DNA of 15,682 nt from Gemmatales bacterium (GCA_038217425.1 JBBQPM010000165.1:1-15682); one strand, 5' to 3'; numbered from the stretch's first letter, positions 108-14,306 are shown. Numbers and translations are program-made. The notes: generated by a model from the sequence alone, not told the origin.

Positions 108-362
108 ATGACGCATGTGGAACGTGTCGAAGAATACATCATCAAGCTCATTCATCGCGAGCCGTTCTTTCCCTTCGTGATGGATATGGCAGACGGTTCG
201 ACGCTCGAGATTCCTCACGGAAGATTGGCTATCGCGGGCGGCGGAGCGGTATTCCTTAGCCCCGACGACGGCTTTGTGGATTTTCAGTTCAAGAATGTGC
301 GAAGGATCGCTCCGATCGTCCCAGTCCCCTTCGTGCCGATCGATTTCGGAGTTTCCAGATGA
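108..362 (+). CDS. small hypothetical protein (84 aa), translationally coupled to the downstream gene
   Basis: ATG at 108 follows GGAGG (97-101) at 6-nt spacing. Its TGA stop (360-362) overlaps the ATG at 359 of the next gene (ATGA junction). Composition is balanced, unlike the Arg-rich competing frame 26..259. I recognise no family. Confidence 0.55.
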   Translation: MTHVERVEEYIIKLIHREPFFPFVMDMADGSTLEIPHGRLAIAGGGAVFLSPDDGFVDFQFKNVRRIAPIVPVPFVPIDFGVSR

Positions 363-2878
363 CGACGTCCCGCGCGACTTGCTTTGGCGTTTGCGTTCTA
401 ACGCTTGTCGGGGCCGTGCGCGGAGACGCTCAGGACGGCAACGTGCCGCCTGGATTCCAGGAGCACATCCGCCCCTTCCTCGCCGCCCACTGCGTGAGCT
501 GTCACGGCGCCAAGAAACCCAAGGGCGATCTCCGCCTCGACAACCTCCCCGCCGACTTCGGCGACAAGAAGACTGCGGAGATCTGGGCCAACGTCTACGC
601 CCGATTGCGCGACGGCGAAATGCCCCCCAGGAAACAGCCGCAACCCAAGGCCGACGACGCCAAGAAAATCCTCAACTGGATCGCGGAGCAGACGAAGTCC
701 ACGACTCGGCCCTTGCTCAATCGCCGGCTCAATCGCTACGAGTTCGAGTACTCGCTGCGCGATTTGCTCGATCTCCCGGGGCTCGAAGTCAAGGAACTGC
801 TCCCGCGCGACGGCGAAAGCGAAGGCTTCGACACGGTCGGCGACGGTCTGGATATTTCCTACGTGCAGATGGCGCGTTTTCTGGAGGCGGCCGACCTGGC
901 GCTCGATCAGGCGGCGGCGACCGGGCTGGCGCCGATTCGGCCCGACACGCGCAAGATCCGTTTTTGGCCGCAGGACGCCGGCGATTGGGTCAATCGCATG
1001 GGGAGCGGTTCCACCATTCCGCTCGGCGATTCAGGCGCCCACCCGGTGCTCGATCGCGAGAAGGGCGTCGTCGCGCTCAAGGCCGCGGAGCTACGCAAGC
1101 TGCCGCGCTTCAAGGCCGTCGCCACGTTCTTTCACTCCGACTCGTCCGCCCAGCATCGCTTCTCGGGCGACGTCCGCATCCCTGTGGCCGGGCTCTACAA
1201 ACTCACGATTTCCGCCTACACGTTCGACTGGAACAAGGGCCAGGTCGAACCCGCGAAACTCGCCCGGCCCTACTCCATCAGCACCGACACGCGCGTGCTC
1301 GGCTACTTCGACGCGCCCCCCAACGAAGCGGGCCTCAGCACCGTGACGGTCTGGCTGGAGCCGACCGACAGCATCCACTTCAACGCCGTCAATCTGCGGC
1401 ACGGCCATGGCCTGGCCAAGGGGGCGATGAGTTACGCGGGGCCCGCCATTGCCGTCGAATGGGTCGAAGCCGAGGGACCGATCCTCAAGACCTGGCCCAC
1501 GCTCGCGCGCACCCGGCTCTTCGGCGATCTCCCCCTCGCCGAATGGCAGGCGAAGTCCAAGCTGCACAAGCCGTCCCGGCCCAAGGGAATCACGCACTAT
1601 TTTACCCCGACCTCGACCGACCCCATGGTCGACGCCGAACGCTTGATTAAGGAATTCACTTACCGCGCCTGCCGTCGGCCGCTCACCAAGGAACGCGTCG
1701 AGCCGTTCCTCAAACTCGTGAAGGCCCGGCTCGATCAGCAATCGTCCTTCGAGGACGCCATGCGCACTGCGTACAAGGCCGTGCTCGTCTCGCCCCACTT
1801 CCTCTTCCTGCGCAGCGAGCCGGGCAAGATCGATCACTTCGCGGTGGGGAGCCGACTTTCGTATTTCCTGTGGAGTTCGCTCCCCGACGACGACCTGCTC
1901 AACCGTACCAACACCAGGCAAATCCTTCAGCCGGCGATGATGAAGACGCAGACCGATCGGCTCCTGGACGATCCCAAGTTCGAACGCTTCCTCGACAGTT
2001 TCCTGGGCCAATGGCTCAAGCTCCGCGAGATCGGCAGCAATCAGCCCGATCGCCAACTCTATCCCGAGAGCGAACTCGAGTCGGACATCAGCCATTATCT
2101 TTTCGACTCGATGGCCAACGAAACCCGGCAATTCTTCGCGAACATGATCAAGAAGGATCTGAGCGTCACGCATCTCGTCGACTCGGATTTCGCGTTCGTC
2201 AACGAACCGCTGGCGAAGCTCTACGGTCTCAAGGACGTGTACGGGTCGGCGTTGCGCGAAGTGCCGCTCCCCGCGAACGGCGAACGCGGCGGCATCGTGA
2301 CCCAGGCGAGCGTGCTGAAGGTCTCCGCGAACGGCACGACGACCTCGCCGGTCGTGCGCGGCGTGTTCGTGACGAGCCGGCTGCTGGGCCGACCGATCCC
2401 GCCGCCGCCTCCGAACATCACCGGCATCGACCCCGACGTTCGCGGCGCCACCACCATTCGCGAGCAGCTCGCCAAGCATCGCGACAACGCGTCGTGCTTC
2501 GCGTGCCACGCCAAGATGGACCCGCCTGGCTTCGCGCTGGAGAGCTTCGACGTGCTGGGCCGATTCCGCGAACGCTATCGATTTCTGGACAACGGCCGAA
2601 TGAATCCCAAGGGCCCGCTTGTGGATTCCAGCGGCGAAACCGAGGATGGGCAGAAGTATCAGAGCATCGCCGAGTTCCGCAAGATCGTGCTCGCCGACCC
2701 GGCGCCCCTCGCGCGCAATCTCGTCACCAAGCTGATGGTCTACGCGATCGGCGCTCCGCTCACCCCGGCCGATCGGCTCGAGGTCGACGCCATCGTCGAA
2801 CGCCTGCGCGCCAAGAATTTCGGCGTCCGTTCGATGATTCACGAGGTGGTGCAGAGCAAGGCGTTCCGTCAGGAATGA
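359..2878 (+). CDS. secreted planctomycete-type haem-binding multidomain protein (PSCyt + DUF1587/DUF1595/DUF1592/DUF1588/DUF1585 architecture)
   Basis: 839 aa. The N-terminus looks like a signal peptide (MTTSRATCFGVCVLTLVGAVRGDA). CxxCH motifs are CVSCH at nt 491-505 and CFACH at nt 2495-2509. Family-typical strings include LNRYEFEYSLRDLL, YFLWSS.PDDDLL, FL.QWL.L, TSPV.RG.F and C.ACH...DP.GFALE.FD..G..R. Domain names come from recollection of the Pfam families first defined in Rhodopirellula. Confidence 0.9.
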   Translation: MTTSRATCFGVCVLTLVGAVRGDAQDGNVPPGFQEHIRPFLAAHCVSCHGAKKPKGDLRLDNLPADFGDKKTAEIWANVYARLRDGEMPPRKQPQPKADDAKKILNWIAEQTKSTTRPLLNRRLNRYEFEYSLRDLLDLPGLEVKELLPRDGESEGFDTVGDGLDISYVQMARFLEAADLALDQAAATGLAPIRPDTRKIRFWPQDAGDWVNRMGSGSTIPLGDSGAHPVLDREKGVVALKAAELRKLPRFKAVATFFHSDSSAQHRFSGDVRIPVAGLYKLTISAYTFDWNKGQVEPAKLARPYSISTDTRVLGYFDAPPNEAGLSTVTVWLEPTDSIHFNAVNLRHGHGLAKGAMSYAGPAIAVEWVEAEGPILKTWPTLARTRLFGDLPLAEWQAKSKLHKPSRPKGITHYFTPTSTDPMVDAERLIKEFTYRACRRPLTKERVEPFLKLVKARLDQQSSFEDAMRTAYKAVLVSPHFLFLRSEPGKIDHFAVGSRLSYFLWSSLPDDDLLNRTNTRQILQPAMMKTQTDRLLDDPKFERFLDSFLGQWLKLREIGSNQPDRQLYPESELESDISHYLFDSMANETRQFFANMIKKDLSVTHLVDSDFAFVNEPLAKLYGLKDVYGSALREVPLPANGERGGIVTQASVLKVSANGTTTSPVVRGVFVTSRLLGRPIPPPPPNITGIDPDVRGATTIREQLAKHRDNASCFACHAKMDPPGFALESFDVLGRFRERYRFLDNGRMNPKGPLVDSSGETEDGQKYQSIAEFRKIVLADPAPLARNLVTKLMVYAIGAPLTPADRLEVDAIVERLRAKNFGVRSMIHEVVQSKAFRQE

Positions 2879-2946
2879 CGACGTTCGCATCTTAACGAAA
2901 CCTTCGCGCGTTGCGTTCGCGTCCTTCATACGCCATCCGCATCATT

Positions 2947-4392
2947 ATGCAGATGACGTACGACGCGGACGTGATCGTGGCAGGCAGCGGCGCCGGGGGC
3001 GCGACCTTGGCGTACGCATGCGCCCGTGCCGGCAAGAGCGTGCTGCTCCTGGAACGGGGCGACCGCTATCCCCCGCCCGAATCGACCGCCGACGAGCAGA
3101 CGATGCTCATCGACAAGAAGCCGTACGACGATCGCCCTATCGACGTCAACGGCACGGCGCGTCGGCTGTACATGGGAGGCGTACTGGGGGGTGGCACCGC
3201 GCTCTTCGGCGCCGCCCTGATGCGGGCCCACCCCGACGACTTTCATCCCGGCAAACACTACGGCGACCGCCTGCCTCGCCACCTCTGGGATTGGCCCCTC
3301 ACCTACGAAGATCTTCGGGACGACTACGCCGACGCCGAACGTCTCTTCGCCGTCTCCGGCAGCGCCGCCTACGCTGGCGCCCTGCTTCCGCTTCATCCGC
3401 TGAACCAGCGTTTGATGTCGGCGAATCGCGAAGAGGGTCTTCAGCCGTTTCGCCTCCCCCTGGCGATCGACGCGAGCAAGTGCCTGGAGTGCCGAGCCTG
3501 CCCGGGGTTCGTGTGTCCGACCGGCGCCCGACGTTCGTCGGCGCAGCTTGTGGACGGGCCCAATCTGCCGGGCCTGCGCGTCCTCACCGGCATCGACGTC
3601 GAGCGGCTCGACCTTGCGGACGGCTTCCACGTCATCGAACGCGCCACGAGCCGGCGCACCGTATATCGTGCGCGCCGCTACGTGCTCGCCGCCGGCGCCA
3701 TCGGCTCGCCGCTACTGCTCTTGCGGTCGGGTCTGGAGCATCCGCAGCTCGGTCGCAACTACATGATGCATCTGTCGCCGATCGTCGTCGGGATTTTCGC
3801 CAGGCGCCTGGAGACTGACGCGGGATTCCTCAAGCAGGTCGGCTTCACCGATTACTATTTCGGCACCGGGACATATCCGCACAAGCTCGGCTTGGTGCAA
3901 TCGCTGCCGCTGCCGGGGCCGTTGATGCTCGCCAAGGCGCTCCCCTGGATGCCCAGCGCGGTGCGGGAGTTTCTGCGTCGGCGCATGTTGCCTCTCGTGG
4001 GGATCGTGGAAGATTTGCCGAATCCCGAGAATCGCGTGTCGTGGGGTGCGGACGGTAAGCCGGCGCTGCGGCATCGCTTCAGCCCGTACGATCTCGAGCG
4101 AGGCAAGCAACTCGCGGGGTTGACGGCCCAGATACTCAAACGCGCCGGCGCCTGGACGTGTGCGACGAGCAGCTTCGCCTCCAGCGAGCACGTCGCCCAT
4201 CAATGCGGCACGCTTCGCTTCGGCTCCGATCCGAAGCACGCCGTCCTGGACCGCGACTGCCGGCTGCATCAGCATCCGCACGTCTTCGCGGTCGACGGCA
4301 GCTTCCTGCCGACGTCGCTCGGCGTCGGGCCGGCGCTCACGATCATTGCCAACGCCCTGCGCGTCGCCCGCATTGTTGCGAGCGAAGTTTGA
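2947..4392 (+). CDS. GMC-family FAD-dependent oxidoreductase
   Basis: The N-terminal Rossmann motif DVIVAGSGAGGATLA...LLLERG lies right after ATG 2947. The track ORF starts at TTG 2911, and I prefer 2947 because of where the GxGxxG falls. The C-terminus carries a GMC signature (HQCGTLRFG..P...VLD...R.H....VFAVDGSFLPTS.GV.PALTI.A.A.R.A). A Cys cluster CLECRACPGFVCP sits at nt 3481-3516. Confidence 0.85.
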   Translation: MQMTYDADVIVAGSGAGGATLAYACARAGKSVLLLERGDRYPPPESTADEQTMLIDKKPYDDRPIDVNGTARRLYMGGVLGGGTALFGAALMRAHPDDFHPGKHYGDRLPRHLWDWPLTYEDLRDDYADAERLFAVSGSAAYAGALLPLHPLNQRLMSANREEGLQPFRLPLAIDASKCLECRACPGFVCPTGARRSSAQLVDGPNLPGLRVLTGIDVERLDLADGFHVIERATSRRTVYRARRYVLAAGAIGSPLLLLRSGLEHPQLGRNYMMHLSPIVVGIFARRLETDAGFLKQVGFTDYYFGTGTYPHKLGLVQSLPLPGPLMLAKALPWMPSAVREFLRRRMLPLVGIVEDLPNPENRVSWGADGKPALRHRFSPYDLERGKQLAGLTAQILKRAGAWTCATSSFASSEHVAHQCGTLRFGSDPKHAVLDRDCRLHQHPHVFAVDGSFLPTSLGVGPALTIIANALRVARIVASEV

Positions 4393-4405
4393 ATCCGGAG
4401 TCCGC

Positions 4406-5332
4406 ATGAGATTGCCCTTTCCGAAAGTTCGCCGAGAGCAGTTCCGCCAGGCCCGCCAGGTTCACGGCGGCTTCTGGAATTTCCTCGTCGCCATCCTCGG
4501 CGTCAAGCTCGCGCGGCTGCACATCCCGACCGGGAAGCTACGGACCTCGCTGTACCGCAAGATCTTTAACAAGAAATACCCTCCTGGCATCAACGAGGCC
4601 GAAACGGAACGGCCTCTCTCGGCGTATCCCTCGCTCAACGCCCTGTTCACGCGCGGCATCAAACCCGAGTGCCGGCCGATCGCGACCGGCACGCCGCAGT
4701 TTCTCTCGCCCTGCGACGGGACCGTTCAAGATCTCGGCCGACTCGACCGCGACAAGCTCCTCACGCTCAAGAGCATCGAATACACGCTCCCGTCGCTGCT
4801 CCCGGAGGTCGACACTCGGCCGTTCGAGAACGGGCACTACGCGATCGTCTTCTTGTCGCCGATCGATTGTCATCGCGTCTTCAGCCCGCAGGACGGCCGA
4901 CTCGAAGAGGTGATCCACATCCCCGGGTATCGGCTGCCGGTCCATCCCCCCTGTCAGCGTGCGGAGTTTCCGGTGTATTCGCTGAACGAGCGCATGATCT
5001 TGCGATTGTCGACGCCGCTGGGGCCTTGCCTGGTGGTGATGATCGCGGGCTGGGGCGTCGGGAACATCACGTTGCCCGGGGCGGCGGACTTCCGCCCGCG
5101 CCGTCGGGCGCTGTCCAAGAAGACCTGGTCGAAGCCGCTGGAGGTCCGCCGCGGCGACTGGATCGCGACGTTCGAACTCGGTTCCACGGCGGTGCTGATC
5201 ACGCCCCCCGGCGTCCACGTGCAAACGCTCGTCACCCCCAACCAGAAGGTCCAGTATGGCCAGCCTCTCTTTACTTACGCCGACCAGGGCGGAACCGATC
5301 GAGCAGCGCGTGCTGTTCCTCGATCGACTTGA
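4406..5332 (+). CDS. phosphatidylserine decarboxylase-like pyruvoyl-dependent decarboxylase proenzyme
   Basis: 308 aa from ATG 4406, with GGAG at 4397-4400 and only 13 nt after the GMC stop. PSD-family motifs are SPCDG, FLSPIDCHRVFSP, IPG, NER and the self-cleavage site FELGST (Ser codon 5183-5185). The upstream part of track ORF 4160..5332 is Arg/Ser-rich, overlaps the GMC gene, and I discount it. Confidence 0.85.
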   Translation: MRLPFPKVRREQFRQARQVHGGFWNFLVAILGVKLARLHIPTGKLRTSLYRKIFNKKYPPGINEAETERPLSAYPSLNALFTRGIKPECRPIATGTPQFLSPCDGTVQDLGRLDRDKLLTLKSIEYTLPSLLPEVDTRPFENGHYAIVFLSPIDCHRVFSPQDGRLEEVIHIPGYRLPVHPPCQRAEFPVYSLNERMILRLSTPLGPCLVVMIAGWGVGNITLPGAADFRPRRRALSKKTWSKPLEVRRGDWIATFELGSTAVLITPPGVHVQTLVTPNQKVQYGQPLFTYADQGGTDRAARAVPRST

Positions 5333-5345
5333 CCCGGCAGCGCCA

Positions 5346-6803
5346 ATGCGAGCCCGGTTCGTGGCGCTGGTCAGTTCCTTCTCCATTCACCTGGGCGATA
5401 CTGCCGCCGCCGAGGCGGAGCGGGTTGCGCGGGAGCGTCTGCGAACAACGGCCGACCGCGTCGTGGCGATTCGCGCGGGGAACTCCGAGACCGGGCTGCG
5501 CCGTTACGGATTCGCGTATCCGCTCGTGCCGGGCTATCTGCGCAGCTGCTTCGTCTCGGACGCCGAGCTGTTCGCGGCCATCGACAAGATTCGGCAGGCG
5601 CCGACAGCGCGGAAGTGCGTCGCCGTGCTCGGCGCCAATCGCCCCTGGCGCGACGCGCTTCGCGAACATCGGGCGCGTGGCATCGTGTCGGCGTGCCTCA
5701 CCGGCGTCTGCTTCGTGCTTTCGCTGCTGCTCTTGGGCCATCTCGCCGCCCTGGTGCTCCGCCTGCTCGCGCGCTGGCGGCCTGCCTTGCGGCGCTGGAA
5801 CGTCGATACCCTGACCCCCGGCTCCTTCGACGAATTGCTCACCCTGTGCAACCCGTACAACTTCCAGCACGTCAAGGTCGTCGGCTACAACAACGGCGTC
5901 GTCCACTTCGGGCATCGCTATCCCGGCAAGACCGTCGTCTCCACCGTCCGCTGCAATCGCGTCGTCCGCGCCGGCGTCGACGTCCTCAAGGCCGACTGCG
6001 GCGCCACGATTCGCAAGGCGACCGACTTCCTCGCCGCCGACGACCGCGAGCTCTTCGTCGTCCCAAATTACTCGTACGTCAGCCTGGGTACGGCGTTCTT
6101 CGTTCCCATTCATGGCTCCGCCTCGGATGCGTCGACCGTCGCCGAGACGATCGTCCGCGTGCTGCTCTACGATCCCGCCGACGACCGCTTCATTCTCGCT
6201 TCGAGCGATGAGCCGGCCTTCCGCGATCGGGTGTACGACCTCGCGAGCAACGTGCTCGTTCTGCGACTTTGGCTCCGCGTCAAGCCGAAGGCCCGCTACT
6301 TCCTGCAACAAGAGGACGCCCTGAATCCCGGCAGCGCCGAATTGCTGAGTGCGCTGCGCGACGTGCGGGCGACCAACGTCGAGATCCGCAAGGCCAGCGC
6401 CGCCTCGGCGACGGTGCGGATCGCGCGCTACTATCATGCGGCGGGTACCGGGACTTTGGAGATGCCGCGCGATGTGCTGGGACGGTTGTGGGATCGTCTC
6501 GAGGAGAACGCGATCACGTCGTACTTGATGCATCTGCTCACGCGGCGGCTCGCCTGGCATGTCGAGCTGTTTTTCACGGCCGAGGAGTTCGCGCTCTTTT
6601 GGCAGACGCACACGTCGGCGCCGCTCAAGAAGATCCAGCTTCGCTACATTCGCCGGGACGGCTGGCAGCATTCGCCGTTCCGCGATCATGACTGCATCTC
6701 GGCGGATCTGTTCCTGTTTCGCTGGCAGCGCGCGAAGTTCGAGGCGTACTTGAAGCAGACGTTCGGCGTCGTCCGTTCGAATCCGGGCAAGCACAGCAAC
6801 TAG
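5346..6803 (+). CDS. membrane-anchored FAD-binding PCMH-type oxidoreductase (VAO / sugar-1,4-lactone oxidase / DprE1-like)
   Basis: ATG 5346 lies 13 nt after the PSD-like stop. The alternative start at 5256 would overlap that gene by 77 nt. A hydrophobic helix (GIVSACLTGVCFVLSLLLLGHLAALVLRLLA, about nt 5679-5771) precedes a segment matching the FAD_binding_4 pattern (P.SF.EL......VKVVGYNNG....; ADCGATIRKATDFL; VSLGTAFFVPIHGS; LVLRLWLRVKP). The C-terminal ..NPGKH resembles the HWGK ending of ALO-type oxidases. The family call rests on motif recollection only. Confidence 0.6.
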   Translation: MRARFVALVSSFSIHLGDTAAAEAERVARERLRTTADRVVAIRAGNSETGLRRYGFAYPLVPGYLRSCFVSDAELFAAIDKIRQAPTARKCVAVLGANRPWRDALREHRARGIVSACLTGVCFVLSLLLLGHLAALVLRLLARWRPALRRWNVDTLTPGSFDELLTLCNPYNFQHVKVVGYNNGVVHFGHRYPGKTVVSTVRCNRVVRAGVDVLKADCGATIRKATDFLAADDRELFVVPNYSYVSLGTAFFVPIHGSASDASTVAETIVRVLLYDPADDRFILASSDEPAFRDRVYDLASNVLVLRLWLRVKPKARYFLQQEDALNPGSAELLSALRDVRATNVEIRKASAASATVRIARYYHAAGTGTLEMPRDVLGRLWDRLEENAITSYLMHLLTRRLAWHVELFFTAEEFALFWQTHTSAPLKKIQLRYIRRDGWQHSPFRDHDCISADLFLFRWQRAKFEAYLKQTFGVVRSNPGKHSN

Positions 6804-6810
6804 GAGAGCC

Positions 6811-8862
6811 GTGATCATGGATGCCGGTCGACGTCTGGAAGAAACCTACGAGCAGATGCTGCGCGAGAAGCTGCCCAACCTGTTTCGGCTCTACCTGAAT
6901 CCGTACGTCGTCGGGACGTGCCTGTGCCTGGAACGCATGATTCACATTTCCTGGCAGACGTCGGAGCCGTACCAGTCGTTCCTGGCGAACAGCTTCGACG
7001 AGGCGCTCAGCGGGGCGATCAAGCTGGCACGTTACGCCGCCAGCGTGACCGGCAAGCCGAGCCAGGGACTGGTGATCGACCGCGAGAACCGACTGGAATC
7101 GTTCGCGTCGTCCGGGGACGTGGTGTTTCTGCCGGGACTCACGATCGTCCGCAGCGCGGCATCGGCGGATGCGTCGTTCGGCTTCGTCGTCGAGGTCGGC
7201 TCCGAACCCGTCGCGACGTCGGCGCTGCGCGTCGTCTGCACCGATCGTGCGGCACTCGTCCATCGGCGGACGCAGCCGTCGGCTTCTCCAGATATCGTCG
7301 TGTTCGACGAATCGTTCGTGTGCCGCGACGTTCCGTTCGGCGCCTTCGCGGCCCGCAAGAGTCTTTACGATCACTGGAATCGGCCCGGGAAATCGACCTT
7401 TCACTCGACCACGTTTCAGCCCAACACCGTCTCGACGCTGCACTTCATGAGCTGCCTCGAGCGCGACGACCCGGAGTGTTACGCCCAGATCGCCGCCGAT
7501 CTTCGGCGTCTCGAGGACGATCCAGCGCTTCGGCTAAAACTCTTACGGCGACTCTACAGCCCGTCCCTCGCCAACGCCATCGCGGCGACGGGATGCGACA
7601 CGCCCGATGTCCGCGCCGAAGGGCACTACGTGTTCGTCGACGGCCGCAAGATCTTCGACGGCGTGGGCGGAGTCGCCTGCAGCGTGCGCGGACACAACCC
7701 GCCGACGTATGCCGAGGAAATCGCCGATCTCGCCGACGTCGATTGTGCCGGGGAACTAAAGGCGAGGCTGCACGCGTCGACCGGATTGCCGAACCTGCTC
7801 CCCGCGGTCAGCGGCGCCAGCGCGGTCGAGAACGCGCTCAAGCTCGTCCTGGTCGCGCAGTCCCCGCGCAAACACGTTCTCGCGCTCAAGTCGGGCTTCG
7901 GCGGCAAGACCTTGCTGGCGCTCGCGGGCACCTGGAATTCCTCGTACAAACAACATCTCGACCCGCTCTACGCCGAGGTGCTCTACGTCGATCCGTTCGC
8001 CGACGACGCCGTCATGCAGATCGAGGCGATTCTGCGGACCACGCCCGTCGCGGTCGTGCACATGGAGTTGATCCAGGGCGTGGGGGGCGTGCGCCGCGTG
8101 CCGGAAGCGATCGTGCGCCATCTCGATGCGGCCCGGCCGAGCCATGGATTTTTACTGCTCATCGACGAAGTTCAAACGGGCATGTTCCGCACCGGGCCGT
8201 TCACGCTTTCCCGCGCCATGGGAGTGACGCCCGATCTGCTCGCCATCGGCAAGGCCGTCTCCGACATGATGATTCCGTTCGCCGTCACGCTCTACTCGCA
8301 GCAACTTCAGCAAAAGCTGACGCAGCTCGGCTCGACGTTGCCGGAATGCATTCGCGATCGGTATTCGTATCCGATCGCATATCAGACGGCGCTGAACGCC
8401 CTTCGCTTCGCGGAGAAAACGGGATTGGCCGAGCGCGTGGCAGAATCGGGCGCGGCGTTCGCCCGACGGCTCGTGGAGGAACTGGCGACGTGCAAAGCCG
8501 TCCGCGCCGTCCGAGTCTTCGGGCTTTTGATCGGCATCGAACTCGACGCGTCGCGCTGGCCGCAGCGCTGGTTTGCGAAACGCCTCTTCTGGTTCTATCT
8601 GTCCGCGATGTTGCAGCATCCGCGCTTCCCGGTCCTCGTCGGTTTCTGCCAGTATGAACCGAACGTCCTCAAGATCACGCCGCCGCTCACCACCGATGCG
8701 GACGAGATTCGGCAGATCTGCGCGACGATCGGCGACGTCTTACGGCGACCGTTCTATCGTCTCTTGATTTCCGCCGTCGGCGGAATGTGGAAGTCGTTCG
8801 GTCTAGGGAGGAAGAAACATGCAGTCCCTGAAAGCCCAGCCCCTCAGCCTGTTTCGCATTGA
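6811..8862 (+). CDS. tandem class-III (omega-amine type) aminotransferase: degenerate N-terminal pseudo-domain plus complete PLP domain
   Basis: 683 aa. Start is GTG 6811 or ATG 6817, with AGGAG at 6802-6806, 7 nt after the upstream stop. The C-terminal domain carries SGASAVENALKL, ELIQGVGGV, IDEVQTGMFRTG and PDLLAIGKAVSD (PLP Lys codon AAG 8251-8253). Residues about 20-245 repeat the same fold signature in shortened form (LYLNPYV, SFDEALSGAIKLAR, FDESF, PFGAFAARKSLYD, FHSTTFQPN) but lack the Lys segment. Confidence 0.85.
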   Translation: MIMDAGRRLEETYEQMLREKLPNLFRLYLNPYVVGTCLCLERMIHISWQTSEPYQSFLANSFDEALSGAIKLARYAASVTGKPSQGLVIDRENRLESFASSGDVVFLPGLTIVRSAASADASFGFVVEVGSEPVATSALRVVCTDRAALVHRRTQPSASPDIVVFDESFVCRDVPFGAFAARKSLYDHWNRPGKSTFHSTTFQPNTVSTLHFMSCLERDDPECYAQIAADLRRLEDDPALRLKLLRRLYSPSLANAIAATGCDTPDVRAEGHYVFVDGRKIFDGVGGVACSVRGHNPPTYAEEIADLADVDCAGELKARLHASTGLPNLLPAVSGASAVENALKLVLVAQSPRKHVLALKSGFGGKTLLALAGTWNSSYKQHLDPLYAEVLYVDPFADDAVMQIEAILRTTPVAVVHMELIQGVGGVRRVPEAIVRHLDAARPSHGFLLLIDEVQTGMFRTGPFTLSRAMGVTPDLLAIGKAVSDMMIPFAVTLYSQQLQQKLTQLGSTLPECIRDRYSYPIAYQTALNALRFAEKTGLAERVAESGAAFARRLVEELATCKAVRAVRVFGLLIGIELDASRWPQRWFAKRLFWFYLSAMLQHPRFPVLVGFCQYEPNVLKITPPLTTDADEIRQICATIGDVLRRPFYRLLISAVGGMWKSFGLGRKKHAVPESPAPQPVSH

Positions 8863-9370
8863 GTTCGACGAACTCTACGCCCGCCATCTGTGCCGGCATT
8901 CGCAGCGGGGCATCAACGCCATTCACCTCGCCGCGCTCTTCGGCATCTGGTACGCGGTCTACGGGTTGCTCCACTGGGCCGTCGGCCTCGACGGGGTGCT
9001 CGCAGTCCCGGCGCTTTCGTATCTCTTGATCCTGGCGCCGAATGTGCCGCTCCGCGTCCTCGTGGCGATGGCGTTTTTTCTCGGCGTCCTCATCGCGGCG
9101 GTGCTGCTGCTCCCGGCGCCGTGGTGGGCGTACCTCCTCATGATCCCGGCGCTTGCCAAAATCCAGTCGTGGAGCCATCGCTTCTACACGGCCACGCGCG
9201 ACATGACGGAGTTCAACCGGAAGTACGTCAAGGGGCGGGTGCTCTTCGTGGTGCTCTTGATATACGAGGTGCCGATCGTGCTCAACCTTCTTTTGTGCCC
9301 GCGTGAACTGCCCGCGGTTTTCGGCGCCGAGCGGTCGAGCGAAACATCGAGACCAGCATGTTCGTCGTGA
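8819..9370 (+). CDS. DUF962 / Mpo1-like four-helix membrane protein
   Basis: ATG 8819 follows GGGAGG (8806-8811). The protein is 183 aa with about four hydrophobic helices. The N-terminal Y..H...H....N.IH pattern and a late Q.WSH.F segment resemble the yeast Mpo1/YGL010w family as I recall it. It overlaps the aminotransferase 3-prime end by 44 nt and the convergent GT 3-prime end by 89 nt. Confidence 0.5.
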   Translation: MQSLKAQPLSLFRIEFDELYARHLCRHSQRGINAIHLAALFGIWYAVYGLLHWAVGLDGVLAVPALSYLLILAPNVPLRVLVAMAFFLGVLIAAVLLLPAPWWAYLLMIPALAKIQSWSHRFYTATRDMTEFNRKYVKGRVLFVVLLIYEVPIVLNLLLCPRELPAVFGAERSSETSRPACSS

Positions 9371-10529
9371 AGCGGGCGATGCTTTCGCCCCACGCCGGCC
9401 TTGGCGCCGAGTGCTCGATCGCCTGCAGGTACGCCTCGCGCACCCGGCCGATCGAGTGTTCCCAGTTCCGCGCTTCGATGGTCTGCCGGGCGGCGGCGCC
9501 GATGCGGGCACGGGTTTCGGGCTCCTTCAGGATGGTGCGCGTCCAGCGGACCGCGTCGTCCGTGTCTTGCGGTCGGTAGAGGTAGCCGGACTCGGCATGG
9601 GTTAGCAGATTCGGAATGCCGCCGGCCTGCGGCGCGACCACGGCACAGCCGGTCGCCATCGCCTCGAGCACCACGTTGCCCATCGTCTCTGTTTCCGACG
9701 CGTAGAGAAACGCATCGGCCGAGGCGTACGCGGCGGCCAACTCTTCCCCCTTCAGGTATCCGAAGAAGTTGGTGTCCGTCCCCTCGAAGCGGCGCTCCAG
9801 GTTCGCACGGGTCGGGCCGTCCCCCACGATCGCCAAGGTACATTCGGGAAACGCGCGCATCACGTTCGCCAGGAAGCCGACGTTCTTCTCGGGCGCCAGA
9901 CGCGAGACCGTGAGCAAGAGCGGACGCTCGGGTCGCCCGTGCGTCAGGCGATTCCGCATCGCGGCGCTTTGGCGCTTCGGATGAAAGAGATCGCTGTCGA
10001 CGGCCGGGGGCCAAAGCTCGACGCGTTCGAAGCCCCGGCTCTTCAGATCTTCCTGCATGATGGGCGAGACGGTGAGGTTTACGTCGGCGCGATTGTGGTA
10101 GTTGCGCATCAGCCACCAGATCAGCGCCGAGAGGGGCCGCAGCGCCTGGTAGCCCTTCACGAACTCGCCGTACAGCGTGTGGAAGGAGAAGACGCTCGGC
10201 ACGTTCATCCCGGACTGACGCAGGAGATCGTTGACGCGAAAGCCGAACGCGAAGGGGTTGACGTAGTGCAGCACGTCGGGACGAAACGCGCGGAGCTTCG
10301 CCGCCAGGCTGCGGTCGGGCAGGCCGATGCGATATTCGGGGTAGAGCGGAAACGAAAAGCTCGGCACCGGCAGCACGGGTATGTCGCAGCGCTCGCATCC
10401 GGGCGCCTGGGGACAGACGACGAGGAGTTCATCGCCGTGCTGGGGGAGTTGGCGAATGAGATGGAGCGTGCGATTGACGACGCCGTCGATCTTGGGCAGG
10501 AAGACTTCGGAGATGATGGCGACTTTCAT
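9282..10529 (-). CDS. GT4-family lipid glycosyltransferase, SQD2/SqdX-like (diacylglycerol glycosyltransferase type)
   Basis: 415 aa from ATG at 10529, preceded by AGGAG. It aligns by eye along its length with plant SQD2: I.SE.FLPK.DGV..R, SF.FPLYPE, LW...VDS..F.P, GRPE.PLL..V.RL..EK, IVGDGP....LE..F, F.G.L.G.EL..AYAS.D.F...SETET.G.VVLEAM..G..VV....GGIP.L. The EX7E motif is at nt 9663-9689. Confidence 0.9.
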   Translation of the reverse strand: MKVAIISEVFLPKIDGVVNRTLHLIRQLPQHGDELLVVCPQAPGCERCDIPVLPVPSFSFPLYPEYRIGLPDRSLAAKLRAFRPDVLHYVNPFAFGFRVNDLLRQSGMNVPSVFSFHTLYGEFVKGYQALRPLSALIWWLMRNYHNRADVNLTVSPIMQEDLKSRGFERVELWPPAVDSDLFHPKRQSAAMRNRLTHGRPERPLLLTVSRLAPEKNVGFLANVMRAFPECTLAIVGDGPTRANLERRFEGTDTNFFGYLKGEELAAAYASADAFLYASETETMGNVVLEAMATGCAVVAPQAGGIPNLLTHAESGYLYRPQDTDDAVRWTRTILKEPETRARIGAAARQTIEARNWEHSIGRVREAYLQAIEHSAPRPAWGESIARFTTNMLVSMFRSTARRRKPRAVHAGTKEG

Positions 10530-10541
10530 GGCGCTCCTGGG

Positions 10542-11381
10542 TCAGGGGGCGATTTTCTGGGCGAGATGGATTTCGATGCTGTGATGATCTTCCAGAGGGA
10601 ACAAGAAGCGATTGAGTGCGAAGCGCGTGAAGGCGCCGGCTTGGTGCAGGCCGATCGCTTCGATGAAGGGGGTGAGCCAGCCGCCGTAGTAGGCGAACTC
10701 GAGGAATTCGTCGACGTTGCGGAAGCGCAGTTTCGGCTCGAAGGTTTCGGATTGGCGGATCGCGAAGTTGTTTTGTTTGAGGGTGTCGACGACTTCCTGC
10801 CGATTCGCGGGGCTCATGACCATGCTCTCGACGTCGAGTTTGGGCCCGCGGAAAAGGAACTTGAGGAGTTTGCTGTCGGCCTTGGCCTGGAGTTTGGGGT
10901 AGGAACGTTTGGTCGCGCCGAGGTAGGACCAGTAGCCGCCGACGGCGAGTCGGCTCCAGACTTTGGGCGCCAGGATGCTCAAGGGGACGAAGCCGCTGAT
11001 AAAATGGGTGCAGATGAGATCGAACGATTGATCGCGGAAATGGGCGTCGAGATTGGCGGCGGTGTCGACGGTGCCGACGAGATCGGGAAACTTGCGGTAG
11101 GCGCAGTCGATCATCTTGGGCGAGAGGTCGAGGCCGAAGGGTTGGATCTGATCGTCGGCGAGGGCTTTGAGGCGGGTGAGGAACATGCCGGTGCCCATGC
11201 CGACGTCGTAGACGGAGAGCCGGGTCGAGCCGTCGCCGAGGAGTCGCTGTTTGCGGATTTGGGCGACGGCGCGGTCAAGGGTGTCGCCGTTGACGGATTG
11301 GGGATCGAGGTCGTAGCGGGAGGCGATGACTTCGTCGTACTGACGCTGAATGGCGCTGGTCGTCATGGGGAAGGTTTCCAT
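10542..11381 (-). CDS. class I SAM-dependent methyltransferase with uncharacterised C-terminal extension
   Basis: Motif I is VYDVGMGTG, post-I is GLDLSPKMI, motif II is FDLICTHF and motif III is LAVGGYW. The stop at 10542-10544 is 12 nt upstream of the GT start, so the two are probably co-transcribed. The start is uncertain: the track uses TTG 11411, and ATG candidates are at 11381 and 11366. Confidence 0.8.
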   Translation of the reverse strand: METFPMTTSAIQRQYDEVIASRYDLDPQSVNGDTLDRAVAQIRKQRLLGDGSTRLSVYDVGMGTGMFLTRLKALADDQIQPFGLDLSPKMIDCAYRKFPDLVGTVDTAANLDAHFRDQSFDLICTHFISGFVPLSILAPKVWSRLAVGGYWSYLGATKRSYPKLQAKADSKLLKFLFRGPKLDVESMVMSPANRQEVVDTLKQNNFAIRQSETFEPKLRFRNVDEFLEFAYYGGWLTPFIEAIGLHQAGAFTRFALNRFLFPLEDHHSIEIHLAQKIAP

Positions 11382-11480
11382 CGGGGTTGGCTCGGACTGA
11401 CCCTGGGTCAATAAACGAAAGAGGCGCGAGCATTGAATGAAGACGCGAGGGGGATTGCGTCAAGTTAGGTTGAAGGGATC

Positions 11481-12612: not shown

Positions 12613-14088
12613 CTACGGATCTTGTTCTACGACCGGCGGCGGGGGAGCAGCCATGCGGCGGGACGGCTCGTTCCATAAGCGGAAGCCAATGTCTTCAGCC
12701 GGCGCAATTGCAGGCGCAACATACCACGCCGCTTTCCCCAACGGCTCGCGGACGATGGCGCCTTGGTCGTCGTTTTCATCGATGCCGATGGAATAGACGA
12801 CGATGCCCTCCGCCTCCTCGCGATACCGCAAGGGTTGCCCGTCCACGGGATCGACGGGCAACGCAGGGAGCAGCTTCTCGGCAACCAGCACCTCCAGCGT
12901 CTTCGGCCAGCGCTTGTGCTCGAGCCGATACCGTTCGCAGGCGAGCGCCACGAGCGTCGTTCGCAGCACTGCCTGACTGCGGAGTTCATAGGCATGAATC
13001 CTCACGCAAAACGAAAAGGAGGCCCCGTCGAGCGGATCGCGTGCTTTGCCGTCGGTATGATCATGAAGTTCCTGCAGCTTGGCCTTCTGCTGGTGCAGCG
13101 GCAGTTTCGCAATTTCGATCAGCCGATTCGTGAAGCGAAGATGGGCCGGGTAGTACTTCAGTACCAACTTCGGAAACTCCTCATGGATCCAATCTCCCAG
13201 CGTCATGTTGTCTCGGGCGGCGAACCATTTACGCGGCACGGGATGCTGGGTCACCTTGCCATTGCGAATATTCTCAAAGCAGTGGTGAAACCCCGCCCGC
13301 TCTCCTTTGAGCGTGCCGATCCAGTTGCTTTCTTCAATCTCGCGCGCCACCAACATTTGTAAGGTGAGCAGGCTCTCCTTGGACGGACTTCCCTGGGCGA
13401 GGATGCGCTCGGCCGTTTCTGCAAACTTGCGGTGATTGCCCATACGACTCAAATGGGAACCCAGAAAGCGATCGTCCCCGATCGTCCGTCCGATGTTCAG
13501 AATCGCCCGACAGTTGCCCAGCGCCTCAGCGCAGCGATTCTGCTGGGCCAAAAGATAGGCGTCATGAAGCAGCCATTCCGAGATCGAACGAGCCGCATCA
13601 TGAGCCGGCATCTGCGTCCAGATATAATCGGCACTGAACTCGATGGCAAAGCGGCCGTGCGGCATGTCCTTCAGCTTGCGAGCTTCGGCGATTGCCGCCG
13701 GCGCGCTGTAGAGTCGGCTCCGGATCAGGTCGATTTGCTGCAAGTTCATCCGCTGGGTCGGCTTCAACGCGGCGAAGATCTTGTCGTAATCCGCCGCCGT
13801 CGAGACGCACAACTTGGGCGCTTTGCTGTGCGCCCGGAGGATCTGCAAAGCGGCGTTGTCCGCATCGAGAATCGGCGGGCGATCGGCTTCGAGTTCGGCG
13901 AGCCGCCAGCGCGGTTCCAGGGCGTCGGTTTCCGCCTCGGCGCAACTCCAGTCGTGGTCGAGGGCGATTCCGAGTAGGTCCAACACGCACAGAATCACAC
14001 ATCCCGTGACGACGACGCAGATGAGTCCGACCAGCCACCAGCGCCGCCTGGGCCTCGACGACGTGACGGGAGTCGATTGCGTGTTCAT
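12613..14088 (-). CDS. hypothetical single-pass membrane-anchored protein, largely helical
   Basis: I prefer the ATG at 14088 (MNTQSTPVTSSRPRRRWWLVGLICVVVTGCVILCVL), which gives a positive-inside N-terminus plus one TM helix. The track ORF extends to 14298 through lower-GC3, hairpin-rich sequence that I take as non-coding, and ATG 14151 is another option. The C-terminal string YRLEHKRWPKTLEVLV...LPALPVDPVDGQPLRY......VVYSIGIDENDDQG is a motif I recall from many uncharacterised PVC proteins and from pseudopilin C-termini. Confidence 0.65.
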   Translation of the reverse strand: MNTQSTPVTSSRPRRRWWLVGLICVVVTGCVILCVLDLLGIALDHDWSCAEAETDALEPRWRLAELEADRPPILDADNAALQILRAHSKAPKLCVSTAADYDKIFAALKPTQRMNLQQIDLIRSRLYSAPAAIAEARKLKDMPHGRFAIEFSADYIWTQMPAHDAARSISEWLLHDAYLLAQQNRCAEALGNCRAILNIGRTIGDDRFLGSHLSRMGNHRKFAETAERILAQGSPSKESLLTLQMLVAREIEESNWIGTLKGERAGFHHCFENIRNGKVTQHPVPRKWFAARDNMTLGDWIHEEFPKLVLKYYPAHLRFTNRLIEIAKLPLHQQKAKLQELHDHTDGKARDPLDGASFSFCVRIHAYELRSQAVLRTTLVALACERYRLEHKRWPKTLEVLVAEKLLPALPVDPVDGQPLRYREEAEGIVVYSIGIDENDDQGAIVREPLGKAAWYVAPAIAPAEDIGFRLWNEPSRRMAAPPPPVVEQDP

Positions 14089-14213
14089 GGAACCAGCATA
14101 CCGTGCCGCCAGGTCAATTCCAAGCGTCTCATTTTCGAAGGTCCACGGCATAACCTTCGCGCGAGGACACTGGTACATAAACGTCACGATCTTGCCCCGG
14201 AAGTATAGTTTCC

Positions 14214-14306
14214 TCTGCCCCTGCCGGGGCAGTCGAATTTCGTCGTGCATCCACGGGTTGCGCTGCGCTCCACCCGTGGCTACCTTCCGCCGCCCCATCC
14301 GGGGCG
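14214..14306. repeat. cluster of three perfect hairpins (REP-like intergenic element)
   Basis: Hairpin 1 is CTGCCCC-TGCC-GGGGCAG (14214-14231). Hairpin 2 is CCACGGGT-N13-ACCCGTGG (14250-14278). Hairpin 3 is CGCCCC-ATCC-GGGGCG (14291-14306). Hairpins 1 and 3 share a GCCCC-N4-GGGGC core. The cluster lies in the divergent intergenic region between 14088 and 14634. Confidence 0.4.

Follow-up and report, generated by a model that had tools for sequence, protein, structure and literature searches.

A tandem class-III aminotransferase from a Gemmatales bacterium, probably a single-chain pseudo-heterodimer with a lysine-less N-terminal half

In class-III aminotransferases the phosphate of pyridoxal 5'-phosphate (PLP) is held by a Gly-Thr/Ser loop of the subunit itself together with a threonine of the other subunit, as is the case for Gly150, Thr151 and, from the partner, Thr332* in YgjG (PMC4244111), and the active site of an omega-transaminase is defined by dimerisation (PMC9594044). 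The canonical enzymes (ArgD/LysJ, 1vef; GabT, 1sff; YgjG, 4uox) are symmetric homodimers with two sites, the Lys and the trans-acting Thr being present together in every subunit, and the general view of class-III (omega-) transaminases is that they are obligate dimers of a symmetric kind. The gene analysed here has a different architecture. It lies in a stretch of DNA of 15,682 nucleotides from a Gemmatales bacterium (GCA_038217425.1, JBBQPM010000165.1:1-15682), hereafter the window, and encodes a protein with two class-III modules in tandem. Its C-terminal domain shares with the canonical enzymes the fold, the Lys, the Asp, the Ser-Gly pair, the Glu and the aromatic residue, and its N-terminal domain has the same large-domain fold, but the functions of Lys and Thr are divided between these two unequal modules of one chain.

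The one experimental precedent among aminotransferases for a division of labour of this kind is SerTA of Serratia sp. ATCC 39006 (FEBS Lett 2024), in which the full Ser5 is associated with the short, lysine-less and large-domain-only Ser4; there is a single active site per heterodimer, Ser4 gives Asn189* and Arg191* to the PLP phosphate, and according to its authors it was the first heterooligomeric aminotransferase to be studied (PMC11726168). The pairing of a complete aminotransferase with a lysine-less, large-domain-only partner is also found in the tandem protein. SerTA, on the other hand, is made of two polypeptides from two genes, whereas the tandem protein is fused with the dead module at its N-terminus; SerTA falls in the sugar-aminotransferase (DegT-like) branch and its genes in an amino-group carrier protein cluster, whereas both tandem halves belong to class III (PF00202); and in place of Asn189*/Arg191* the predicted trans element of the tandem protein is the class-III Thr loop. 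SerTA gave no sequence match in the PDB searches done with the tandem protein or with its N-domain. The tandem protein thus carries the SerTA principle over to a further aminotransferase branch and into a fused form.

Serine palmitoyltransferase (SPT) is a fold-type I enzyme in which a lysine-less LCB1 is paired with a catalytic LCB2, and the coccolithovirus EhV-86 has it as a natural single chain, the term 'single-chain SPT' being attested in the literature. The likeness with the tandem protein lies in a dead paralogue joined to a catalytic one and, in the virus, fused to it; the differences are that SPT belongs to the alpha-oxoamine synthase subfamily, performs a Claisen condensation and has both halves full-size. 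PigE and PtTamH are natural thioester-reductase/transaminase fusions, class-III omega-transaminases which aminate the aldehyde made by the reductase (PMC8341465, PMC9594044). For the C-terminal domain of the tandem protein PigE ranks first among the structural matches and close to first by sequence, and two tandem relatives (P0264 and P0331) share the reductase fusion. PigE and PtTamH differ in having a single transaminase module, PtTamH being a homodimer (PMC9594044), and no pseudo-aminotransferase domain is reported in their descriptions, which were compared rather than their sequences. In the literature searched, no description of a tandem, pseudo-dimeric or fused class-III aminotransferase was found.

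The two modules of the tandem protein

The residue numbering used throughout is that of the 681-aa database gene call (P0001, ATG start), the numbers of an initial annotation made from the sequence being higher by two. That annotation had announced a 683-aa protein: the single continuous open reading frame (ORF) holds, while a length of 683 aa requires translation to begin at the alternative GTG, at 6811. Upstream, the preceding gene ends with its stop codon at 6801-6803, after which comes a GAGAG stretch. The gene and the segments of its product to which the text refers are as follows.

6817-8862, + strand: tandem class-III aminotransferase gene, ATG start, 681 aa
6817-7554, + strand: N-terminal pseudo-aminotransferase, aa 1-246, a class-III large domain only, lysine-less and without PLP ligands of its own
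6874-6909, + strand: PNLFRLYLNPYV motif, aa 20-31, highly conserved in the clade of the window and aligned to residues 65-75 of 2eh6
6991-7032, + strand: SFDEALSGAIKLAR, aa 59-72, equivalent of the phosphate loop S-G-S/T-E-A with its helix, in degenerate form, aligned to SGASAVENALKL of the C-domain
7237-7248, + strand: CTDR, aa 141-144, at the DEVQ-motif position according to the alignments, with Cys141 in place of the Asp that contacts PLP N1
7288-7317, + strand: PDIVVFDESF, aa 158-167, the dead domain's Lys segment, in which Glu165 lies at 7309-7311 (GAA)
7399-7425, + strand: FHSTTFQPN, aa 195-203, retained H-x-x-T-F-G-G-N-P motif, with Thr199 at 7411-7413
7555-8766, + strand: C-terminal catalytic class-III aminotransferase domain, aa 247-650 (Pfam PF00202, PDB and Foldseek)
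7810-7830, + strand: SGASAVE, aa 332-338, phosphate-binding loop, aligned to SGTEANE of 1vef
8164-8181, + strand: DEVQTG, aa 450-455, with Asp450 to the pyridine N1 and Gln453 to O3', aligned to DEIQTG of 1vef
8242-8265, + strand: AIGKAVSD, aa 476-483, with the catalytic Lys479, aligned to the Lys of 1vef and 4ppm
8353-8382, + strand: RDRYSYPIAY, aa 513-522, relic of the Thr motif, degenerate and aligned with an insertion to HGTTFGGNPLA of 1vef

A two-domain ORF could be an artefact in which a frameshift or a misassembly has merged two adjacent aminotransferase genes. A genome survey limited to one genome for each species yielded 79 loci, and locus counts are given over 81 loci. The halves are joined in one uninterrupted ORF at 75/81 loci; the other six are interrupted or partial, and the one of these that was inspected (L067) is frameshifted. 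Beyond this and the general possibility, nothing was found in favour of an artefact. The interrupted loci are mostly metagenome-assembled genome (MAG) contigs of the MFD series, and the one that was translated looks like a sequencing frameshift. The ORF of the window is stop-free, and more than 100 homologues from independent assemblies measure 680-740 aa. Since the two halves form a single ORF at 75 of the 81 loci, the fusion is not a frameshift artefact; the merger reading is refuted and keeps a negligible probability. The tandem arrangement is genuine, and it is both conserved and maintained by selection.

The C-terminal half is a complete class-III domain with its PLP lysine in AIGKAVSD, as the initial annotation had it: Pfam Aminotran_3 (PF00202) matches aa 268-644 with 152.7 bits vs a cut-off of 30.5 (E 1.5e-44, profile positions 15-403), and codon 8251-8253 is AAG. 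The closest sequence matches of this half are ArgD/LysJ, PigE and putrescine or GABA (gamma-aminobutyrate) aminotransferases, the nearest PDB structures by sequence being Thermus LysJ/ArgD 1vef (E 1.7e-29) and the PigE transaminase domain 4ppm (E 1.6e-25). Foldseek with the full-length AlphaFold model also returned class-III enzymes, with E 7.8e-23 for 4ppm and target-normalised template modelling (TM) scores up to 0.84. Further motifs aligned to 1vef are GFGGKT, which holds the stacking Phe361, and ELIQGVGG. Where canonical enzymes carry H-G-T-T-F-G-G-N-P-L-A in the 1vef alignment, the C domain has STLPECIRDRYSYPIA with an insertion, its own H-x-x-T-F-G-G-N-P loop being replaced by ECIRDRYSYP.

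None of the 67 NCBIfam families among the equivalogs searched reached its cut-off, the best being argD with 158 vs 410, followed here by PRK03244 with 143 vs 457 and the PigE model with 142 bits vs 850. Because every NCBIfam equivalog cut-off was missed, the protein is not an orthologue of ArgD, LysJ, PigE, BioA or GabT, and ArgD/LysJ/PigE/BioA equivalog membership is ruled out by scores far under those cut-offs. The database names of its relatives are generic, and hundreds of proteins labelled 'acetylornithine/succinyldiaminopimelate/putrescine aminotransferase' are probably something else.

For the N-terminal half several lines of comparison were combined. Taken alone, the N half of the window scores 12 bits with PF00202 (E 0.085), under the cut-off; its weak Pfam/NCBIfam matches are to class III only and are collinear, aa 22-77 falling on profile positions ~84-139 and aa 156-210 on ~279-333. 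A profile of 27 N-domains run against the PDB had ArgD 2eh6 as its best match (E 0.0054), with residues 24-216 of the N-domain collinear with residues 65-264 of the aminotransferase, and class-III enzymes made up seven of the ten PDB matches listed. Individually, 16/27 N-domains matched Aminotran_3 weakly. The tandem family comprises two clades from at least six phyla, and in the sister clade of that of the window all ten N-domains examined (10/10) matched Aminotran_3 (E 1.8e-13 to 1.7e-5, profile positions ~206-330), five of them above 30.5 bits. The AlphaFold model of the N-domain alone has a mean predicted local distance difference test (pLDDT) of 85.7 and a predicted TM score (pTM) of 0.86, and every one of the top 50 Foldseek matches of this model belongs to class III (E from 2.9e-7, TMq 0.52-0.65). 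Aligned to the C-domain by hhalign with a diverse alignment, the N-domain reached a probability of 78% (E 1.9e-5) over 171 collinear columns. The hidden Markov model (HMM) comparison of each half, strong for the C half and carried for the N half by the profile-PDB, single N-domain and sister-clade matches, and the large-domain fold found by AlphaFold/Foldseek agree that both halves are of class III, as had been proposed, the N half adopting the class-III large-domain fold and not an unrelated one. The homology of the N half to class-III aminotransferases goes far beyond what chance would give, and this half is a class-III large domain without the canonical first ~60 residues and without the C-terminal small domain.

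The N-terminal motifs LYLNPYV, SFDEALSGAIKLAR, FDESF, PFGAF and FHSTTFQPN were all recovered as first described, but their assignment had to be changed in part. About 25 residues around the catalytic Lys had been considered missing from the N half. This segment is present, since the PDB (2eh6) and internal alignments put PDIVVFDESF..PFGAF on the PDxxxxAKxL..PxGA pattern, that is on PDVIALAKGL..PIGAI of 2eh6 and PDLLAIGKAV of its own C-domain, with Glu165 where the Lys would be. An equivalence of FDESF with DEVQTG was rejected, as the DEVQTG position is occupied by VVCTDR (Cys141) and FDESF sits in the Lys segment. The phosphate-loop counterpart reads S-F-D-E-A, with Phe60-Asp61 at the key positions; positions 60-61 are variable throughout the family (F/G/R/H and D/E/L, respectively) and E62, K69 and R72 are nearly invariant. 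Cys141 is present in 160/282 full-length members aligned from both clades, and LDES or LDET is often kept by the sister clade. With Glu165, Cys141 and a variable phosphate loop, the cofactor site of the N half was therefore lost by substitution and not by deletion. Judged from these residues (Glu165, Cys141, the Phe-Asp loop) and from the lack of a stacking aromatic, the N module has no means to bind PLP.

The Thr motif and the segment near the N-terminus of this half, on the other hand, are strongly retained. FHSTTFQPN aligned to HINTFGGNP of 3n5m, and the sister clade carries HSSTFGGN at this place. In the PNLFRLYLNPYV motif, P20, N21, R24, L25, N28, P29 and V31 are invariant in the 27 N-domains, and P20, N21, R24 and V31 in 116 full-length members; this motif is a candidate for a second trans-acting or interface segment, its role in trans being deduced from conservation and position.

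The conservation of the two modules was then counted over the same 282 full-length members, with the following result.

C module, Lys479: 282/282
C module, Asp450: 282/282
C module, Ser332-Gly333: 282/282 (S332 and G333 alike)
C module, Glu417: 281/282
C module, Phe/Tyr361: 282/282
C module, 513-517 (equivalent of the Thr loop): neither Thr nor Ser conserved across the 282 members
N module, His196: 276/282
N module, Thr199: 279/282, and Ser in 2 more
N module, Asn203: 281/282
N module, position 165: Glu 261/282, Asp 14/282, Lys 0/282

The motif swap between the halves, noticed at first in the window, is thus real and family-wide. The spacing from Glu165 to Thr199 is 34 residues, vs 32 from Lys300 to Thr332 in YgjG. 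The N and C halves have lost opposite elements, each retaining precisely those missing from the other, as would be expected if the N half occupies the position of the partner subunit and only the site of the C half is alive. Two further observations arose from the same alignment. Position 165 (7309-7311 in the window) is acidic in 275/282 members of both clades, beyond what mere loss of function explains. In NVLKITPPL (8662-8688), Lys619 stands at the Arg position of the class-III n-v-l-R-l-x-P-P-L pattern, the usual ligand of the alpha-carboxylate; Lys is found there in 207/282 members and Arg in 66/282, Arg being kept in the sister clade.

The pseudo-heterodimer model and its alternatives

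The best-supported mechanism is that the protein works as an intramolecular pseudo-heterodimer of two class-III (fold-type I) modules, and this is probably correct. In such a protein the C module (aa ~247-650) would be the sole catalytic one, binding PLP via Lys479, Asp450, Ser332-Gly333, Phe361 and Gln453, and the N module would probably pack on it where a second subunit would sit, so that Thr199 of the H-S-T-T-F loop would complete the single active site in trans by binding the PLP phosphate. The LYLNPYV segment would probably contribute to the active site as well, and each chain would hold one PLP. The initial annotation had put forward this interpretation, which the reciprocal conservation, the homology of both halves and the SerTA precedent support; what we infer from them is that the halves are arranged as in a dimer and that Thr199 touches the phosphate.

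Structure prediction and coevolution were used to look at the packing of the two modules. AlphaFold gave the full-length protein as one rigid body, with a mean pLDDT of 89.6 and a pTM of 0.91. Two segments of the N half, 21-30 (NLFRLYLNPY) and 91-110, had a pLDDT of 68-76 in the model of the N-domain alone and of 91-92 in the full-length model, a gain of 16-23, with the PNLFRLYLNPYV motif going from 68 to 91; because of this rise, the models suggest that both segments are at the N/C interface. Mean-field direct-coupling analysis (DCA) of 282 sequences (effective number, Meff, about 216-225) was done with gaps excluded, as gap artefacts dominated otherwise, and it returned plausible intradomain pairs together with suggestive inter-domain pairs, among them L27/Y30-I255, V32/L36-V481 (beside Lys479) and A97/S99-K342/V346.

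Several of these results weigh against the pseudo-heterodimer model. The hhalign probability between the N and C halves is only 78%, and with a shallow alignment (120 close homologues, effective number of sequences Neff 2.5) it was 9% and the match was non-collinear. The pLDDT comparison rests on alignments of unequal depth, 116 sequences vs 27. The H-S-T-T loop has a pLDDT below 50 in both the full-length and the N-alone models and is not placed confidently; such a low value can plausibly be read as neutral in a model of a loop that requires the cofactor. Inter-domain pairs made up 34% of the top 50 DCA pairs, vs ~47% roughly estimated from noise, and their clustering was not significant (p about 0.07 at a Meff of 216). 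Finally, two chains may associate further, or their C-domains may also pair.

This last point leads to an alternative in which the catalytic C-domains of two chains form a normal class-III homodimer and the N relic is merely accessory, serving solubility, docking to a membrane or a partner, or regulation, with no part in the active site. All characterised class-III enzymes do dimerise via their catalytic domains, including the fusions PtTamH (PMC9594044) and PigE (4ppm, with two chains), and the uncertain placement of the H-S-T-T loop by AlphaFold would suit it. A C-C homodimer would, however, be left without the trans phosphate Thr, as this loop is degenerate in 282/282 C-domains and is kept in 279/282 N-domains, a selective retention not readily expected of an accessory module that is merely passive, and the pTM of 0.91 points to a fixed packing of N on C. 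The sequence evidence favours a partner within the chain over a symmetric homodimer with two active sites. This alternative is held to be unlikely.

The conservation of position 165 allows another reading, compatible with the pseudo-heterodimer model, in which the N domain keeps a ligand pocket of its own, Glu165 having taken a new role with a substrate tail, a carrier protein or an effector, and the enzyme would be an asymmetric one with two sites. Glu or Asp at this position in 275/282 members is more than a dead site needs, W187, P173 and F174 are nearly invariant as well, and the dead chain of SerTA makes most of the surface on which the carrier protein docks (PMC11726168). The remaining PLP ligands are nevertheless variable (60-61) or lost (Cys141), and the sequence suggests no ligand; an independent second site is considered improbable.

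With the reciprocal losses of its two halves, the protein is a clear-cut case of subfunctionalisation that has given rise to a pseudoenzyme domain. As biocatalysts, class-III transaminases are limited by loss of the cofactor and by dissociation of the dimer. A natural covalently linked pseudo-dimer with one site per chain would serve as a template for single-chain engineering, which is of relevance to transaminase engineers as well as to PLP enzymologists.

Distribution and sister clade

Database relatives of the full protein number 796 at E <1e-5, and the best 120 of these 796 all measure 681-742 aa, the named proteins among them being from Gemmataceae. With the N-domain profile, 254 clusters at 50% identity were found among 1.84 billion representatives searched; their full-length members are of ~680-870 aa, with a few longer fusions, and no stand-alone N-domain family was present among the 254 clusters. 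The survey of the architecture thus finds the fusion conserved in ~250 clusters and also, with the second clade, in unrelated gene clusters. The surveyed loci are mostly from Planctomycetota (Gemmataceae, Isosphaeraceae, Pirellulales, Planctomycetaceae, Tepidisphaerales and one Kuenenia MAG), the carriers in Isosphaeraceae including the cultured Singulisphaera acidiphila DSM 18658, Paludisphaera soli and Aquisphaera insulae. The few cyanobacterial loci are those of Hyella patelloides and of Trichodesmium and Mastigocoleus MAGs.

The sister clade was found by the N-domain profile with E 1e-18 to 1e-22; its N-domain is less degenerate, with H-S-S-T-F-G-G-N, and its hosts are Aminicenantes, Methyloprofundus, Aquimarina, Pedobacter, Streptosporangium and Candidatus Kentron. 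An overlap with the end of a nonribosomal peptide synthetase (NRPS) gene is seen in Aquimarina sp. BL5, the NRPS terminating in a peptidyl carrier protein and a thioester reductase (PCP-R). Some members of this clade are fusions in their own right, the partner being an NAD_binding_4 thioester reductase (P0264, P0331), a methyltransferase (P0276, P0278, P0285) or an F420H2_quin_red-like domain (P0237, P0253), and in Streptosporangium the gene lies beside those of an aldehyde dehydrogenase, P450s and an alcohol dehydrogenase. Because the sister clade adjoins or is fused to thioester reductases and methyltransferases, and with PigE and PtTamH, which produce amines from thioesters, as the nearest characterised relatives, this context suggests the amination of aldehydes, often followed by N-methylation.

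Operon and likely chemistry

In the clade of the window the tandem family marks an uncharacterised seven-gene cluster, conserved phylum-wide in Planctomycetota and present in a few cyanobacteria. Its core has the order GMC oxidoreductase, phosphatidylserine-decarboxylase (PSD)-like protein, ~515-aa protein, tandem aminotransferase and ~180-aa hydrophobic protein, the core neighbour genes being present each at 69-78/81 loci. The genes around the aminotransferase in the window are listed below.

2911-4392, + strand: flavin adenine dinucleotide (FAD) oxidoreductase of the GMC family (Pfam GMC_oxred_N and GMC_oxred_C), upstream in 69/81 loci
4160-5332, + strand: PSD-like protein (Pfam PS_Dcarbxylase, 2e-44), 71/81 loci
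5256-6803, + strand: 515-aa protein combining a hydrophobic segment with a FAD_binding_4-like domain of divergent sequence, 78/81 loci
8819-9370, + strand: 183-aa hydrophobic protein, probably of the membrane, 76/81 loci, with a 44-nt overlap with the 3' end of the aminotransferase gene
9282-10529, - strand: GT4 glycosyltransferase (Pfam Glyco_transf_4 and Glycos_transf_1), adjacent in 46/81 loci
10542-11411, - strand: S-adenosylmethionine (SAM)-dependent methyltransferase (Pfam Methyltransf_25 and Methyltransf_11), adjacent in 63/81 loci

The true start of the PSD-like gene is probably later, its homologues having about 292-296 aa in the gene calls of two other loci (L001 and L002). The window copy of the 515-aa protein has no Pfam match and found nothing in the PDB sequence search, and four of seven homologues match FAD_binding_4 (VAO/PCMH type) in their C-terminal part, the best with 7.9e-6. 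No paper on this operon was found in the literature searched, and neither the Pfam scan of the window nor the gene calls at L001 and L002 revealed a carrier-protein gene in it.

From this context, the likely chemistry of the enzyme would be the conversion of an aldehyde into a primary amine, with Glu or Ala as the amino donor. In the operon of the window the aldehyde may come from one of the two adjacent flavoprotein oxidoreductases, and the methyltransferase next to it may go on to N-methylate the amine, the substrate being one that is associated with the membrane. A broader reading, tentative and on balance doubtful, takes the tandem class-III proteins as widespread, obligate single-chain omega-transaminases with a single active site, in which the emptied PLP pocket of the dead half, with its invariant Glu where the Lys would be, is a docking or substrate-tail site and the operon makes an N-methylated amino-lipid or amino-glycolipid. 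If so, the two halves would no longer be related by two-fold symmetry, and the enzyme would be able to act on membrane-bound or carrier-bound aldehydes.

A few minor features of the window were also recorded. In the 515-aa protein, a hydrophobic stretch at ~aa 145-172 was read by eye as one putative transmembrane helix. The 183-aa protein matches no Pfam family; an H-x4-N-x2-H pattern and a later S-H-R, seen by eye and supported by no search, recall Mpo1/DUF962. The 561-aa ORF at 12613-14298 (- strand) has no family match, and the 491-aa ORF at 9939-11414 (+ strand), antisense to the GT4 and methyltransferase genes and without Pfam match, is probably spurious. The 839-aa protein at 359-2878 (+ strand), which lies outside the conserved cluster (0/81 loci), carries, in keeping with a Planctomycetota origin, the planctomycete-specific PSCyt1/PSD2-5/PSCyt3 set (DUF1585, 1587, 1588, 1592 and 1595) with a cytochrome c motif.

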